Of a stretch of DNA of 64,000 nucleotides, positions 44,135 through 51,250 are shown one piece after another. The notes under the pieces are model-generated. The model was not told the DNA's origin, did no database searches, and saw only the letters and a program-made list of their open reading frames with translations. Position numbers and translations under genes: made by a program. The stretch's first letter is position 1. Each line of letters starts with the position of its first letter. The stretch lies in NCBI GenBank assembly GCA_040220235.1, contig JAVJTO010000017.1; one strand, 5' to 3'. Source of the DNA: Coleofasciculus sp. B1-GNL1-01 (GTDB lineage: Bacteria; Cyanobacteriota; Cyanobacteriia; Cyanobacteriales; Coleofasciculaceae).

Positions 44135-44668
44135 ATGAGTTCAATTCTAACTACCCCACTCACTGAATTTCTGTCTCAACCTAATATTGAGTCGTCTCCA
44201 GCATGGGAATTGATCAATGGGTGTGCGATACAAAAGCCGATGCCAACCCTTTTTCACTCGCGGCTACAACGCAATTTGGTTAATTATATTAACCGTCATA
44301 CGGATAGGTTTGAAGCGGTACAAGAACTACGTTGTCTAGTTCCGCCCTATTCTCCAGTCCCAGATATTTCTATTATTAGGATTGATCGTCTGTCGGAAGA
44401 GGATGGACCTTTTGATGGCGCACCCGATTGGTTGATTGAAATTCGCTCACCTGACCAAAGTACGTTAGATTTACAGAAAAAGATTCTCCATTGTCTCAGC
44501 AATGGTACACAATTAGCTTGGTTAATTGACCCCGGAAGTGAACAGGTTTGGGTATGGCAGGGAGATAACTTACCAACCATCTGTTCAGGTTCAGAGGCTT
44601 TGCCTATTTTGGGTAATTTGCCTCAATTGACTGTTGATGCTGTCATGGGAATGACTCGCCGCTTATAA
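44135..44668 (+). CDS. Uma2 (DUF820) family PD-(D/E)XK protein
   Basis: WELING..QKPMP, VPDI, APDWLIEIRSP, WLIDP. Confidence 0.92.
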   Translation: MSSILTTPLTEFLSQPNIESSPAWELINGCAIQKPMPTLFHSRLQRNLVNYINRHTDRFEAVQELRCLVPPYSPVPDISIIRIDRLSEEDGPFDGAPDWLIEIRSPDQSTLDLQKKILHCLSNGTQLAWLIDPGSEQVWVWQGDNLPTICSGSEALPILGNLPQLTVDAVMGMTRRL

Positions 44669-44999: not shown

Positions 45000-45236
45000 A
45001 GCCGGATTTTGCGACAAGGGGTAGGTGTTTTTTTGAGTGAACCTAAATTTTTGGCTGTAATGCCGTGGGGGTAAGGCTTTGGAGGTTTTTATCTATTCAG
45101 GAGGTTGTCGCACCTTACGCCGTAAGGGTTTCAGCGATTTTAGGACTTTGGGTTGGCTAGTCGAAGGGTTAAAATTAAGGGGTTGTCGCATTGGGGGATG
45201 CAACTTCTTTCTGGGAGAGGCTTTCAGGATGCGGCA
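45000..45236 (+). promoter_or_regulatory. CRISPR leader
   Basis: Non-coding stretch 5' of repeat 1; GGTTGTCGCA at 45103 and 45181, inverted TGCGACAA at 45010, as in cyanobacterial leaders. Confidence 0.7.
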
Positions 45237-45344
45237 GTGACAATTCCCCTTCGGGGGGATTGAGGATTGAAACGATTGTCTGCCAAGCAATGGCAGCTTG
45301 CTGGGGGCGTGACAATTCCCCTTCGGGGGATTGAGGATTGAAAC
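45237..45344 (+). CRISPR. Minimal CRISPR array: 2 repeats, 1 spacer
   Basis: Repeat GTGACAATTCCCCTTCGGGGG(G)ATTGAGGATTGAAAC at 45237-45273 (37 nt) and 45309-45344 (36 nt); hairpin with C(UUCG)G loop and ATTGAAAC 3' end; 35-nt spacer GATTGTCTGCCAAGCAATGGCAGCTTGCTGGGGGC. Confidence 0.92.
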
Positions 45345-46015
45345 GGATAATTTCCCAACGCCGACTCATGACTAAACACCCATACCCCACGAGTTGCCAT
45401 CATTCCCCTGGCGGAGGAACGATCAAATTCAAAACACTTGACTAACGCTTGCCAAAATAACGCTAAATCCGCCTCCGTTACTCCAGTTTGTTTGGCAAAT
45501 TGGGGACAATAAAACCCATGCGCTTTATACAACCCGTAGGGAATAATATTTTTCCGCCCCATGGTTTTATTCTCTTTCCCCTGTTCATTGGTATCCGTTG
45601 CGGCACACCGCGTAATCGATAAATTCATCGGTAGCACCGGATCAAGGGATTCCCCAAAGGTTAATTGTACCGCACCGCGCACTTGTCCGGCATTTTTCCC
45701 CGTGGATAAAACCGCGCCAAACATACGAATGTCATAGAAATTCTCACACATCCAATCCCGTGCTGCAGCAACATCTTTGGGATTGGTTAGCCTTTTTTTC
45801 TTAGAGTCCACGGTTAACCCTTTAGCCGAAACCGCCTCATCAATTGCCTGATTTAAAATAGCGCCTTCGCTGACAAAAATCCGCTGATCTGATGCCAGGG
45901 TGACAAAGTTGCGAATCTTGCGCTTCAGACAAGCATCGGTGACTAATCCATGTCCGGTTTGTAAGTCAGTTCTGGGTGTATTGTCGGCATCTGGATCACC
46001 ATTGGGGTTTCCGCT
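45345..46015 (-). pseudogene. cas7: Type I-C Cas7 (Csd2), truncated at both ends
   Basis: One frame reads SGNPNGDPDADNTPR..GLVTDACLKRKIRN..FYDIRMFGAV..GQVRGAVQ..TMGRK..YGLY..DRSSARG..HESALGNYP. An in-frame TAA precedes it with no start codon, and it ends at the CRISPR repeat. Confidence 0.88.
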
Positions 46016-46368
46016 TTAGTTTTCTTGGTATTCAACTCACTCCAAAAGCCTAAATCAAAATAAGCTTGAGCGCCAATACTAAACGTAGTAGGAATAGCTG
46101 TGGTTTGAGCCAATTCTGCGATCGCGCCATTAATCTGGGCAAGCTGGGAGACAAACCACTGGGCTAATCCACCCTCTAATACGGCTAAATGATTTTTTGC
46201 CCCCGATGCGAGGCGATGACTCATGGGAATGGGAGAAAATCCGGCTGTGGCATAACATTTAACTGCATTGGTATTAGCTAACTCGCTAGTTTGAGCCGCC
46301 CGTTGTAACTTGGCGTAGGTGGCTAAAAGTCGCCCATACTGAAACGCGATCGCTTCTTCTTCTGTCAT
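45943..46368 (-). CDS. cas11: Putative Cas11c from an internal start in cas8c
   Basis: Purine-rich GAGGAAAGAACAAGGGAAAAAGGTA before an in-frame ATG (MTEEEAIAFQYGRLLA) at the start of the helical C-terminal domain. Confidence 0.6.
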   Translation of the reverse strand: MTEEEAIAFQYGRLLATYAKLQRAAQTSELANTNAVKCYATAGFSPIPMSHRLASGAKNHLAVLEGGLAQWFVSQLAQINGAIAELAQTTAIPTTFSIGAQAYFDLGFWSELNTKKTKAETPMVIQMPTIHPELTYKPDMD

Positions 46369-47631
46369 TACCTTTTTCCCTTGTTCTTTCCTCACTTGTT
46401 TCACGCCTTCACTATACATATTTAATAGCACCGCACGGGGATAACTCACGGTTTGCTCAATTCGATTTCGCCCACAGACTCGTTGGATTAAATCCATAGG
46501 TAAGGCTTCACCATAAACAGCATTTCGCATCAATGCAGTTACAGTACGACTTTGGATTTCTTTCGCCTCCCGATACCCCGCCGCCGCCAACCGCCAGACG
46601 CCCAAATATCCGCAATTATCACGATTCCAGCCAATCACTTCTTGACGCTTTAACCATTGTTCATAGTGGTGAACAAACTCCGGTTCTTTGCCATGAATCC
46701 AATCGCGAACCACTAATCGACTGGTATAGCCGGATAACGCCAAAATATTAAACTCCCAATCGGGATTAATCTGCTGTGGTTTGTGGAAGAGATTCAGATA
46801 ATCTCGCACCGTTTCTACACTCGGCGTTTCAAATAAATGCCGCGTCATTCCCCCAGAATCTGCCCAAAAAACAAAGGTTGTACTACCGATATTAATATGA
46901 TGATTGTCGTCCCGTAATAGATAACTCAGGGCTTGGGAAAATTGTTCATCAGCTTCAGCACTAATGGGTGAAACTAATGCTCCCGATAAGCCATAAGACC
47001 AACAGGATTTATCATAGGCACTAATTAACGAAGCCCCCGCCGAATTTGTCCCCGGTACACCTTTAATCTGCAAGGAAAACTTGGTAGTTACGGGTAATTC
47101 CTCCCCCGTCACTAAACACTGCATCACCGGGCGATCGCTGGCGGTTAGTTCATCTACATGTCGCGCCCAAAATTTTTGCACGGTGGGTAAATCATGGATA
47201 TAGCCAGGAACTTGATCAATGGTAAAGGTGACGGTTTGCTTAGGTTCAAGTTCTTCGAGTTGAGGATGAGAATTGAGGAAGGTTAAGATAGCCTGAACCG
47301 CTGGTTCTTTTGTGGCTTGATAACAGCGTTGTAAGAGGGCGCGATAGGCTTTGGCTTTTTCTCCATCACCGAAAATATAGTCAACGGTATCGGTAATTAA
47401 TTTGGGCTGAATCGCATTGCGGCGAATATGGGGACAAGACAGTTTTTGACCCGGTTTTGGCTTTTTGGCTTTACCGTTGCGGTCATATTGCGGGGTATTG
47501 AGTTCGATAATCCGATTAAAACTGCCATCGGGATTGAGAATAATTTGCCAGCAAATTGTCGATTCGGCGTAGGCTTTAGCGGGAAGATTAAGGGTGTGGG
47601 AGAGTTTGACTAATTCAGTGAGTATGGTCAT
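45943..47631 (-). CDS. cas8c: Type I-C Cas8c (Csd1); last ~23 aa are out-of-frame cas7 sequence
   Basis: CLVTG, IKGV, ASLIS, FWAD, RLVVRDW, AFQYGRLLA, YFDLGFW; lies between cas5 and cas7. Confidence 0.88.
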   Translation of the reverse strand: MTILTELVKLSHTLNLPAKAYAESTICWQIILNPDGSFNRIIELNTPQYDRNGKAKKPKPGQKLSCPHIRRNAIQPKLITDTVDYIFGDGEKAKAYRALLQRCYQATKEPAVQAILTFLNSHPQLEELEPKQTVTFTIDQVPGYIHDLPTVQKFWARHVDELTASDRPVMQCLVTGEELPVTTKFSLQIKGVPGTNSAGASLISAYDKSCWSYGLSGALVSPISAEADEQFSQALSYLLRDDNHHINIGSTTFVFWADSGGMTRHLFETPSVETVRDYLNLFHKPQQINPDWEFNILALSGYTSRLVVRDWIHGKEPEFVHHYEQWLKRQEVIGWNRDNCGYLGVWRLAAAGYREAKEIQSRTVTALMRNAVYGEALPMDLIQRVCGRNRIEQTVSYPRAVLLNMYSEGVKQVRKEQGKKVMTEEEAIAFQYGRLLATYAKLQRAAQTSELANTNAVKCYATAGFSPIPMSHRLASGAKNHLAVLEGGLAQWFVSQLAQINGAIAELAQTTAIPTTFSIGAQAYFDLGFWSELNTKKTKAETPMVIQMPTIHPELTYKPDMD

Positions 47632-47857: not shown

Positions 47858-48487
47858 CTAGTCGCCAGAGTAAATTACCCGACAATCCATCACACCTTTT
47901 TGAATCGAGGCGCGAAAAAATATCGGTTTTGCTCCTTCTGATGTAAACTCAATATGATGCAGCATTAATCCTAAATCGGTAGTTAAATCAATGGGCGTTT
48001 CATTCTCCGTTGGCTGACTAAAATACGCCACGAATTCTCGACAGCCTAAATAGGGTTGCTGAAAACATTGCCCCTTGGCTAATCGGCGTTTAAATATTTC
48101 CAGATATTTAGTTAAGGGATCTGTTGCATGAGACTGACGCTGCATCTGAATCGTGACTAAATAGGCGACATCGTTTAAAATAAGGGCATGTCGCTGAGTG
48201 CGATCGCTCTCAATTTCTAGGATTCCTCCACTTTGGGCGGTACGATGAGATTGACGCGATTTTAGGGTATTCCGTAGAATCGAAGCTTTCTGAATCGATT
48301 TAAGGAGACTAATCTGAATTACCTGATACTGAATTTCGGGTTTCCAGAAAATAGACTCAGCGATTCCTTTGGCGGCGGAGGGGGTAATTACATCATAAGT
48401 GACTTGTTCAGTTTTAAATTCGGGGCGGGTAAATAAAGCGCGATCGCCCCAAATTTTGAAGGTGATTTCGTTGGCTTGGCTACTCAT
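47858..48487 (-). CDS. cas5: Type I-C Cas5 (Cas5d)
   Basis: WGDRALFTRPEFK.E.VTYDVITPSAAKG..ESIFWKP and QPYLGCREF motifs. Confidence 0.95.
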   Translation of the reverse strand: MSSQANEITFKIWGDRALFTRPEFKTEQVTYDVITPSAAKGIAESIFWKPEIQYQVIQISLLKSIQKASILRNTLKSRQSHRTAQSGGILEIESDRTQRHALILNDVAYLVTIQMQRQSHATDPLTKYLEIFKRRLAKGQCFQQPYLGCREFVAYFSQPTENETPIDLTTDLGLMLHHIEFTSEGAKPIFFRASIQKGVMDCRVIYSGD

Positions 48488-48611: not shown

Positions 48612-50723
48612 ATGACTTCAGATTATCCACCAACTCATTCTATAATTCCTGATCAATCGCCTCAGTCTAACATCCGGATTTCTCGCCCTCCTCGTCAAGA
48701 TGGAACGGTTCAAACAGTTAAGCAACACTTAGAAGAAACAGGCGCGATCGCGGCTTTTGTTCACCCCCTAGCTGAAATCGCTGGAAAATGGCATGATTTA
48801 GGTAAATTTGACCCCACTTGGCAGCAGTATTTACAAGCAAGTATGGCGGGGAATAAATGTAAATCTCCTGGACATGCTATTCATGGCGCGGCGTTAGCCT
48901 GGAAAAAAGGACTTCATGGCGTAGCCTTTGCCATTTTAGGACATCATTCTGGATTACCTAATCTCGGTGGCGCAGATGGTATCCAGCAGAAGCTAAAAGG
49001 TGATCAGCATTGGCAATCCATCCAGGCGATCGCACAAAAAGAATTAGGCGATAATTTCTTTACTTGTCCTTCCCATTATCCAAAACATCCCCTCACCGAA
49101 GACTTATTAATTCGGATTATTTTCTCGGCGTTAGTTGATGCGGATCGAGAAAGTGCTGCCCGATTTCTGGGTGACTGGGATACCGTTACACCTCCAACTA
49201 TAGAGCAATTAATCCCCCAATTTGAAACCCACTATCACCATCTGATCCAAAAGGCAGCAGATACCCCTATCAACGCCATCCGCCGGGACATTTATCGCCA
49301 TTGTCAAGCCGCCGCCACCCTAAAACCGGGATTCTTTCGCCTCACCACTCCCACAGGTGGAGGTAAAACCCTAAGTGTCATGGCATTTGCCCTCCATCAT
49401 GCCCAAAACTACCAGCAAAAACGAATTATTTACTGTCCACCGTTTACCAGTATTATTGAACAAGCCGCCCAAGTTTACCGAGAGAGTTTCTCGGAAGATG
49501 CCGTATTAGAACATCATAGCGGTGTGGTATTTGATACCCATACCGATGAATTACACCATTACCAATTCGCCGCCCAACGTTGGGATTATCCGATTATTGT
49601 ATCCACAACGGTTCAACTGTTTGAAAGTCTCTTTAGTCGCCACCCCAGCCAATGCCGGAAAGTGCATCGCATTACCAATAGTGTGATTATTTTAGATGAA
49701 GTTCAGGCATTACCGACAAAGTACCTCAAACCGATCATGTCCATGTTACGGGGATTGGTGGACAAGTGGAATTGTTCTGTGGTATTCTGTTCAGCAACTC
49801 AACCCTGGTATGGAATTCTCGATCTGCCGGAAATTCGCGATATTGTACCGCTAAATCAGCGTCAAAGCCACGCCAAAACACTCCAGCGAGTCGAGTATCA
49901 CTATCAGCCACAAGCCTGGGATTGGCGCGATTTACTCCAGGATATCCGCCAACGTTCCCTGAAGAATGCCCTTGTCGTTGTTAGTGCTAAAACAGATGCC
50001 CGTCAGGGATTCAAGGTATTATCGGAACTGGGAAATACCTTTCACCTGAGTACGAATATGTACGCCGCCCACCGTCGCCGGGTACTCAACCAAGTGCGCG
50101 ATCGCTTGAACCAGGATTTGCCTGTTTATCTCATCAGCACCCAATTAATCGAAGCTGGCGTGGATATAGACTTCACGGCTGGGTATCGTGCGATCGCGGG
50201 CTTAGATTCTATCATCCAAACCGCAGGACGAGTCAACCGGAATCATAAATTCAATCACGCCATTTTTACCATATTTGAACTCAAAAATCAAGGGTTTCCG
50301 CAGCAAGACAGGGACAAAATTCAAATCACCCGCAATTTACTCAAAGCGGGTCAATCTTTACACGATGAAGCCAGTTGTCAAGACTATTTCAAAAGCTTTT
50401 TAGCCAATCCTGCGGTTAATTTAGATCAGCAGGAGATTCAAAAGCGGCGAGAAGGTTTTATGTTTAAAGATATTGATACTCACTTCCAAATGATTGAGGA
50501 TAATAAGGTTAATGTAATTATCCCCCTAGAAGACACCGCCAAACAACTGATTGAATTAGCGCAAAAGCAACAGAGATTGAGTCAAAAACAATGGCGACTC
50601 CTACTGCACTATGCTGTCGGCGTTACCCCAAAGCTAGCCGATGCTTACTCCCAAGAAATATTCCCCGGCTTACGAGTTTGGCAGGGCGACTATAATCCTA
50701 ATTTTGGTATTGTTACCGAATAG
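48612..50723 (+). CDS. cas3: Cas3 HD nuclease-helicase
   Basis: WHDLGK, GHHSGL, SALVDAD HD domain; PTGGGKT, DEVQ, SAT, STQLIEAGVDIDF, QTAGRVNR helicase motifs. Confidence 0.95.
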   Translation: MTSDYPPTHSIIPDQSPQSNIRISRPPRQDGTVQTVKQHLEETGAIAAFVHPLAEIAGKWHDLGKFDPTWQQYLQASMAGNKCKSPGHAIHGAALAWKKGLHGVAFAILGHHSGLPNLGGADGIQQKLKGDQHWQSIQAIAQKELGDNFFTCPSHYPKHPLTEDLLIRIIFSALVDADRESAARFLGDWDTVTPPTIEQLIPQFETHYHHLIQKAADTPINAIRRDIYRHCQAAATLKPGFFRLTTPTGGGKTLSVMAFALHHAQNYQQKRIIYCPPFTSIIEQAAQVYRESFSEDAVLEHHSGVVFDTHTDELHHYQFAAQRWDYPIIVSTTVQLFESLFSRHPSQCRKVHRITNSVIILDEVQALPTKYLKPIMSMLRGLVDKWNCSVVFCSATQPWYGILDLPEIRDIVPLNQRQSHAKTLQRVEYHYQPQAWDWRDLLQDIRQRSLKNALVVVSAKTDARQGFKVLSELGNTFHLSTNMYAAHRRRVLNQVRDRLNQDLPVYLISTQLIEAGVDIDFTAGYRAIAGLDSIIQTAGRVNRNHKFNHAIFTIFELKNQGFPQQDRDKIQITRNLLKAGQSLHDEASCQDYFKSFLANPAVNLDQQEIQKRREGFMFKDIDTHFQMIEDNKVNVIIPLEDTAKQLIELAQKQQRLSQKQWRLLLHYAVGVTPKLADAYSQEIFPGLRVWQGDYNPNFGIVTE

Positions 50724-50747
50724 GCGATCGTTTCAGTGACGGGTTGA

Positions 50748-51117
50748 GGAAGGGCGGGTTTTGTCGAAAGGTTATTGGTTTCTCGGTTAATTTTGTCCCT
50801 AAACCCGCCCCGACATTGAATTTATTGTGCCGATATCAGATTTCTAGATTAACCAGAAACTGGACAATAAAACCTAGCCGATTATTAGGCGCGATCGCCT
50901 CCCAAAGATATGGGGATAAATTGGGGATTCAGGTGTTCGGTTGGCTGAGATGGTGGGGAAGGGCGGGTTTTGTTGAAAGGTTATTGGTTTCTCGGTTAAT
51001 TTTGCCCCCAAACCCGCCCCGATATTGGATTTATTGTGTCAAGATCAGATTGATAGATTAACCGGAAACTGGGCAATAAAACCTAGCCAATTATTAGACG
51101 CGATCGCATCCCAAAGA
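50748..51117 (+). repeat. Two diverged 161-bp direct repeats of REP-like elements
   Basis: 50748-50908 vs 50957-51117; each has a GGGCGGGTTT...AAACCCGCCCC stem and ends in HIP1. Confidence 0.85.
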
Positions 51118-51250
51118 CGTAGGGGCGGGTTTAGGGATTAAAGGAGTTAACCCACCTCAAAATAAACAACGAAACCCGCCCTGATCCCAACCTAAATTTG
51201 ACGAATGATGAATGACAAATGACGAATGACAAATGACGAATAACAAATAA

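Follow-up and report, generated by a model that had tools for sequence, protein, structure and literature searches.

The crRNA handle of type I-C CRISPR-Cas systems is 11 nt long and their PAM is TTC. During spacer integration, the bottom strand is cut exactly at the 3' end of the repeat, and the PAM end of the spacer is joined at the repeat-spacer junction. According to the accessible sections of PMC8390005, Cas1-Cas2 cuts at repeat ends, and an intermediate that is joined on one side only can break or revert; half-site intermediates, disintegration and the aberrant duplication of repeats are treated there and in the available part of PMC4872114. In type I-D systems, Cas4 selects GTN (available text of PMC5896167 and PMC10212523), which is the PAM for both uptake and interference (PMC5896167). 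Furthermore, PMC8047081 reports, in its accessible part, degenerate or cut last repeats as well as arrays that collapse to one repeat and are refilled, and the available text of PMC6990116 deals with escape from self-targeting by deletion of the target, the spacer or cas genes, including microhomology deletions near the targeted site. Adaptation modules can also be shared: according to the sections of PMC7145637 that are accessible, a single cas1-cas2 pair serves arrays that belong to several interference types, and arrays at a distance match a cas cluster in trans. Decay of cas genes, degeneration of the last repeat, collapse of arrays and sharing of adaptation modules are all known phenomena (accessible portions of PMC8047081, PMC6990116, PMC7145637, PMC12080349, PMC11903412 and PMC4872114).

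The locus considered here, in which a repeat end is fused to cas7, shares repeat-end cuts and off-pathway outcomes with the aberrant integration events of PMC8390005 and PMC4872114; however, the duplications published in the available text of these articles comprise 29-33 bp around an inserted spacer, whereas spacer-less suffixes of 4-36 nt and deletions are found here in natural genomes. The accessible cases of PMC8047081 are substitutions or truncations inside the last repeat and repeat-repeat recombination, while the present ones are spacer-less suffix copies and deletions that start from an intact repeat end. Loss of a cas gene is shared with the escape events of PMC6990116, but a self-targeting spacer was not found among 61 spacers tested, and a repeat-cas fusion by spacer-protospacer recombination was not met in the accessible part of that article. 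In contrast to the shared modules in the available text of PMC7145637, the array of the I-C effector appears to be tuned to a type I-D module encoded at a different site of the genome; Cas8c would then be supplied with GTN spacers. In the open-access literature, supplements aside, no prior description of spacer-less repeat-suffix fusions or repeat-anchored deletions was found; one may exist.

A type I-C locus with a type I-D-like array

The window analysed is a stretch of 64,000 nucleotides of contig JAVJTO010000017.1 (assembly GCA_040220235.1) of the mat-forming cyanobacterium Coleofasciculus sp. B1-GNL1-01, which is labelled G000; other G, L and X labels denote compared genomes, loci and sequencing runs, respectively. 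All four type I-C interference genes, which code for Cas8c, Cas5c, Cas7c and Cas3, score above the cut-offs of the I-C models, with Cas7 being truncated (Table 1). The minus-strand frame beside the array matches Cas7/Csd2 (TIGR02589, E 1e-86, covering profile positions 13-240 of 284) and continues for 39 codons across the array until a stop codon at 45224-45226. As in described type I-C systems, the repeat hairpin leaves an 11-nt tail. In contrast to them, the locus lacks cas4, cas1 and cas2, cas3 is divergent, the array is convergent on cas7, with the leader and both repeats pointing at the end of this gene, the 37-nt repeat and the leader are type I-D-like, and cas7 is broken twice in G000. 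Cas7 is encoded once in this genome, and no intact Cas7 is available for Cascade; full-length Cas7 is present in the congeners G002 and G006. The sole Cas1 and Cas4 of G000 are of the I-MYXAN type and are encoded on contig C51 as a Cas4/Cas1 fusion beside arrays with a different repeat.

Table 1. Position of the features in the window and, where an L label is given, in compared loci.
Feature	Position	Strand	Remarks
CRISPR leader, proximal part, type I-D-like	45100..45236	+	last 60 nt compared with cas1d-adjacent leaders
Repeat 1	45237..45273	+	consensus, 37 nt; 9-bp hairpin, then 11-nt 3' tail
Spacer	45274..45308	+	35 nt; common to run X1
Repeat 2, terminal	45309..45344	+	36 nt, one G short; predicted hairpin still folds
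Deletion junction 1	45344..45347	.	repeat end fused to cas7; 152 bp missing compared with G002; microhomology window CGGA
cas7c pseudogene	45345..46012	-	without start and last 43 codons
cas8c (Csd1)	45943..47631	-	TIGR01863 above cut-off; C-terminus altered by deletion 2
Deletion junction 2	46007..46009	.	125 bp missing: last codons of cas8c, intergenic DNA, cas7 start; microhomology 0-3 nt; absent from X1
cas5c	47858..48487	-	TIGR01876
cas3 (HD + helicase)	48612..50723	+	TIGR01587, TIGR01596; divergent from cas5c-cas8c-cas7
Stacked spacer-less repeat suffixes (4-35 nt) at repeat 3' end	L116:8137-8178; L117:6684-6735; L118:5460-5520; L120:8950-9030; L115:7865-7910		

The repeat sequence is found at a single site in G000, the I-C array, and a search with the repeat pattern matched only one metagenome contig and four genomes. 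The spacer of the window has no target in G000, where its best non-self match shows 10 mismatches over 35 nt; a 19/20 match on contig C63 was rejected as a target because of the same 10 mismatches. An 8-nt crRNA handle was likewise ruled out, as the repeat fold gives 11 nt. In G004, the leader of the orthologous array is divergent (77%) and the repeats start with CTAAC, as does the degenerate last repeat of G003 (L017:5816-6125); judging from these sequences, the leader and repeat type of the I-C array is swapped in this one lineage. Upstream of the leader, a gene for a putative nuclease of the Uma2 family (PF05685) is located at 44135-44668, and the neighbour at this site differs in G002 and G007. 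Downstream of cas3, a 209-bp tandem repeat is present in two copies (50722-51124) and in more copies in G003.

The repeat-cas7 junction is a small deletion

A preliminary description, made from the letters of this DNA alone, had placed a junction between repeat 2 and antisense cas7 at 45344/45345. Indeed, repeat 2 ends at 45344 and antisense cas7 starts at 45345, with codons ending ...HESALGNYP. That the break lies exactly at the repeat end, as was also claimed, is possible, but this register is only one inside a microhomology of 1-4 nt, whose extent varies with the ancestral trailer (C, CG or CGGA). The locus was found in five of eight congeners (G002, G003, G004, G006 and G007) and on a metagenome contig (L022), with an identity of ~94-98%. 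Intact Cas7 runs on with THKLF...AWQKLD, with a distance of 19 bp between the cas7 stop and the last repeat. Compared with G002, ~152 bp are missing in G000, namely the trailer and 43 codons of cas7, which bears out the earlier observation that the C-terminus of Cas7 is absent.

The junction was checked by comparing contigs, not raw reads, of four sequencing runs (23 listed) with the intact G002 locus. A contig of run X1 with a depth of 85.9 has the same 152-base skip and the same spacer and no cover over the trailer bin; the trailer is kept in X3, X7 and X12, three of the four runs compared. X1 also shares the terminal repeat that is one G short. It represents a different haplotype, which agrees with G007 at 19 of 19 listed cas7 alleles and with G000 at 12 and which lacks the second deletion. 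The junction is thus present on two cas haplotypes, so that at least one recombination is needed. No order of the two G000 lesions can be derived, since the G000 junction occurs in X1 together with cas7 alleles of the G007 type. Repeats are often misjoined during assembly; however, an artefact of this kind, one of two outcomes that the preliminary description had named as speaking against its reading, is extremely improbable, because a different strain, X1, carries the junction at high depth without trailer cover and the missing 152 bp were not found elsewhere in G000 in an array of the same repeat. The second such outcome, long microhomology, is not seen either, as the breakpoints share 1-4 nt. 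Junction 1 is therefore confirmed as a real, small deletion.

The absence of cas4, cas1 and cas2 near the array had been pointed out before and holds true, but it is no sign of loss: these genes had no match within 11-16 kb around the locus in G002, G003, G004 and G006. Since they are absent from the locus in every congener checked, they were not removed by the deletion in G000, and a large deletion that carried them off is ruled out by the intact loci. Likewise, the event was thought to have deleted the intervening DNA and disabled the system. While cas7 is indeed cut, only ~152 bp without adaptation genes were lost, and a second lesion, junction 2, which had been overlooked, also kills cas7. 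Furthermore, cas7 contains a nonsense codon in G007 and a 314-bp deletion in G003; as far as the compared sequences tell, the I-C locus is decaying in several lineages. The deletion in G003 begins 36 nt, or one spacer length, past the G000 breakpoint (window 45345-45380, L019:5935-5970), which may be chance.

Leader likeness and probable loading in trans

The last 60 nt of the leader agree in register with four cas1d-adjacent leaders at 30-33 of 60 positions (0 of 5000 shuffles each), compared with 14-20 of 60 for five others (MYXAN and other leaders). The gene order cas4-cas1-cas2 is found at two of the four leader-matched loci (L027 and L029, both checked). All four congeners tested for it (G002, G003, G004 and G006) possess cas10d, and cas4-cas1d-cas2 is likewise found in congeners. 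In G000, cas1d, cas4d and cas10d were not found, and a cas2d remnant, split into two overlapping pieces, lies ahead of the leader of an orphan I-D-type array (C26:64343-65062, L063). A second orphan array of this type is located at C59:63629-63879 (L064).

In G320, one spacer occurs in the same register in an orphan I-C array (L119:7557-7591) and in a cas1-adjacent I-D-type array (L231:1511-1545), and the leaders of the two arrays are identical at 88 of 135 positions. The common spacer suggests that I-C effectors may be fed with GTN spacers. Orphan I-C arrays probably obtain their spacers in trans from a type I-D Cas4-Cas1-Cas2 module, and as such a module would select GTN, the triplet GTC that precedes the break in G000 would fit.

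Sequence of the breakpoint and search for a self-spacer

It had been predicted that intact cas7 continues with TAT CCG AAN past the break if a spacer with a TTC PAM was involved. Instead, it reads TAT CCG ACT, and the triplet before the break is GTC. A second prediction, that a relative carries a cas7-derived spacer, failed as well: none of the 61 spacers tested (40 from other G000 arrays and 21 from I-C arrays other than that of G002) matches the intact I-C locus within nine mismatches. The microhomology at junction 1 amounts to 4 nt (CGGA) in comparison to G002 and L022 and to 2 nt in comparison to a G006-type trailer. A microhomology of at least 4 nt occurs at 1.7% and GTN at 5% of downstream sites. 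Both CGG copies lie at the inner end of small predicted hairpins.

Searches for protospacers of the I-C arrays gave no target: the best non-self match of 26 I-C spacers in G000 has nine mismatches, none was found in sets of 52, 9 and 151 genomes, six spacer patterns had 0 matches each in viral contigs, and no match was obtained with plasmids and phages. The I-C arrays of six assemblies have no spacer in common, and the array of G003 is devoid of spacers. On their own, the microhomology, the triplet GTC in place of TTC and the lack of a self-spacer favour an ordinary deletion.

The 3' end of the repeat is a recurrent breakpoint

Seven sequences of the locus comprise five rearranged trailer haplotypes, all of which have a breakpoint register at the 3' end of the last repeat; the trailer changes are +36 (G003), +24 (G007), +5 (G006), -41 (G004) and -152 (G000). 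In G003, 36 nt of a degenerate repeat follow the last consensus repeat without a spacer, G007 contains 24 nt of the same, and the plain trailer begins with short GAAAC/AAAC-like copies. The repeat-end breaks of G003, G004, G006 and G007 show a microhomology of 0-2 nt. Repeat-end deletions were not found at four other orthologous array ends in the genus (two to three genomes each).

Relatives of Cas7 are encoded in 39 of 401 genomes of the order, and at several of these loci, adaptation genes are missing nearby and the repeats are 37 nt long, ending GATTGAAAC. Five of seven orphan I-C arrays inspected (G161, G225, G296, G280 and G342) end in spacer-less suffixes that are fused to the repeat end and partly stacked (Table 1); such a fusion is absent from those of G320 and G230. 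Of 40 terminal repeats, five are followed by a suffix of at least 9 nt; among 902 internal repeat-spacer borders, this applies to two (Fisher p 2e-6, though related arrays are not independent). The 40 arrays are non-redundant, have a visible trailer and were not chosen by pattern search, with some of them being read backwards or kin; the arrays of G280 and G342 are too degenerate for automatic suffix scoring. In an anchor-free scan, 16 tandem duplications were detected near terminal repeats, of which five cover the exact repeat end (expected by chance in 6% each; p 0.002), and several further ones sit at the end of an earlier suffix.

A pattern search of the 401 genomes yielded 103 matches, 34 in arrays and 69 outside. 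Most of the in-array matches were discarded as chance spacer starts, and seven of eight array-linked fusions have no downstream repeat. As this search is anchored by design, it shows spread rather than precision. A microhomology of at most 2 nt is seen in 16 of 17 hand-picked suffix duplications. GTN had to be rejected as a general rule for suffix fusions, since it precedes only 3 of 17. Within the orphan I-C arrays, a tally made by hand and post hoc puts it before 4 of the 11 repeat-end fusions (p 0.005-0.07); the other seven, like all 14 other suffix duplications of the set, are non-GTN (L175, outside the set, has GTC). L141, L143 and L164 look like gene-end duplications and L205 like a simple tandem repeat, and these were not counted as CRISPR events.

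Possible origins of the junction

A tentative but tenable reading is that junction 1 is a scar of the spacer integrase, formed by Cas1-anchored joining at the 3' end of the repeat. It is preferred because related arrays repeatedly show cuts and duplications at the same repeat edge. An orphan I-C array without adaptation genes would be loaded in trans by the I-D module, and once the array is short or collapsed, the integration site at the repeat 3' end would adjoin the trailer. A one-sided intermediate could then be mis-resolved, such that the repeat is rejoined to some other DNA 3' end instead of its own flank. Extension of the flank into the repeat would produce a spacer-less duplication of the repeat suffix, whereas a trimmed flank or the capture of a downstream chromosomal end would lead to a deletion that is anchored on one side at the repeat. 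The partner end in G000 would lie 152 bp downstream, in cas7, and spacers inserted later upstream would leave the scar at the trailer end. From the compared sequences, we infer both Cas1 as the maker of the junction and the route taken. Repeat-anchored deletions of this kind resemble the adjacent deletions of transposons, which have one fixed and one variable breakpoint. The wider proposal comes close to an even call: through mis-resolved spacer-side intermediates, the cyanobacterial Cas1-Cas2 integrase might act as a local mutagen in nature, with spacer-less suffix duplications, 'adjacent deletions' and the cut cas gene as its products, and a cas1-less cyanobacterial I-C clade might borrow I-D adaptation and so may use a GTN PAM. 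Of the self-inflicted CRISPR origin suggested in the preliminary description, the plausible part is thus a link to Cas1, as GTC fits GTN and the repeat 3' end is a recurrent breakpoint, but neither TTC nor a self-spacer was found.

Several observations argue against the integrase. The 4-nt CGGA match has to be taken as chance, most events of the survey are duplications, with G004 as the only other clear trailer deletion, and lesions that have nothing to do with repeats contribute to the decay of the locus as well (the deletions of 125 bp in G000 and 314 bp in G003 and the nonsense codon in G007). Present-day G000 has no Cas1d, and a look-alike duplication occurs at a gene end outside a CRISPR repeat (L141/L143). 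Since selection does not act on terminal repeats, their load of changes is higher in any case.

An ordinary microhomology-mediated deletion, in which slippage during replication or alternative end joining would have used the CGGA copies at the repeat/trailer border and in cas7, perhaps with the help of the two weak hairpins, is a possible though rather doubtful alternative. The match to the repeat end would then be chance. It would account for the 4 nt shared with G002 and L022, for the position of both CGG copies at the hairpins and for the decay of the locus in several lineages; moreover, alternative end joining uses microhomologies of 1-9 bp (accessible part of PMC6990116). However, the stretch of microhomology comprises just 5 out of a few hundred possible registers, other deletions in the same cas genes have 0-3 nt of microhomology, and neither the repeat-end breaks of the four congeners nor the contrast between terminal repeats and internal borders is explained. 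Slippage is nevertheless kept under consideration, because each model has to accept one match of 1-3% as chance.

It is unlikely that the junction arose via a self-spacer. On this route, I-D Cas4-Cas1-Cas2 would have taken up a ~35-nt spacer from cas7 after a GTC PAM, and recombination between spacer and protospacer, favoured by self-attack, would have deleted the older array and the trailer, leaving the repeat fused to cas7. GTC indeed precedes the break in the repeat-end register and belongs to the I-D PAM (available text of PMC5896167), as do the triplets before 4 of the 11 orphan I-C fusions, and arrays without common spacers, or without any as in G003, fit repeated collapse. Recombination within a duplicated protospacer is also part of a published integration model (PMC8390005, accessible sections). 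On the other hand, the matching spacer is absent among the 61 tested, most of the 11 fusions and the 14 other suffix duplications are non-GTN, the genome, viral, plasmid and phage searches revealed no protospacer that would give the PAM of the I-C clade, and the GGA match is left unexplained.

Consequences and meaning of the junction

Since no Cas7 can be made in G000, neither Cascade nor self-attack is to be expected, and no second cas7 target was found in this genome. An RNA antisense to cas7 had been envisaged as a product of the junction. Such a role is unlikely because the intact array already runs head-on into cas7, whose stop is close to the last repeat, and because cas7 is dead by its second lesion. 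No sigma-70-like promoter was scored on the plus strand. The product of repeat 2 would bear an 11-nt handle. In G002, the 3' tail of the last repeat is predicted to pair with the trailer and the region of the cas7 stop (L016:4619-4655, z -2.8 with the repeat hairpin), and in this model the pairing could mask an extraneous crRNA handle; the hairpin of tail and trailer is lost in G000 through deletion 1. The junction allele is likely to be without function and is one of several lesions in a decaying locus.

The junction is a real lesion in a dying locus and points to a mutational process at the ends of CRISPR repeats that can be put to the test. This bears on the repair of incomplete spacer integrations in cells and on their cost to the host. 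If repeat-end fusions are scars of Cas1, genomes keep a readable record of failed integrations, and CRISPR loci have a route by which they erode their own neighbours and by which arrays collapse. Should a I-C Cascade indeed read GTN, this compact editing system would have a PAM of a new class. If an ordinary deletion is the true origin, the junction is one lesion in a dying locus, and the pattern of suffixes still needs an explanation.

In addition to the arrays, solitary repeat-like units followed by 1-3 tandem copies of 12-13 nt of their 3' end were observed (L176, L177 and L178 in G088 and G306; L162, L166, L168, L170 and L204). By their sequence, these units could be relics or small regulatory RNAs.
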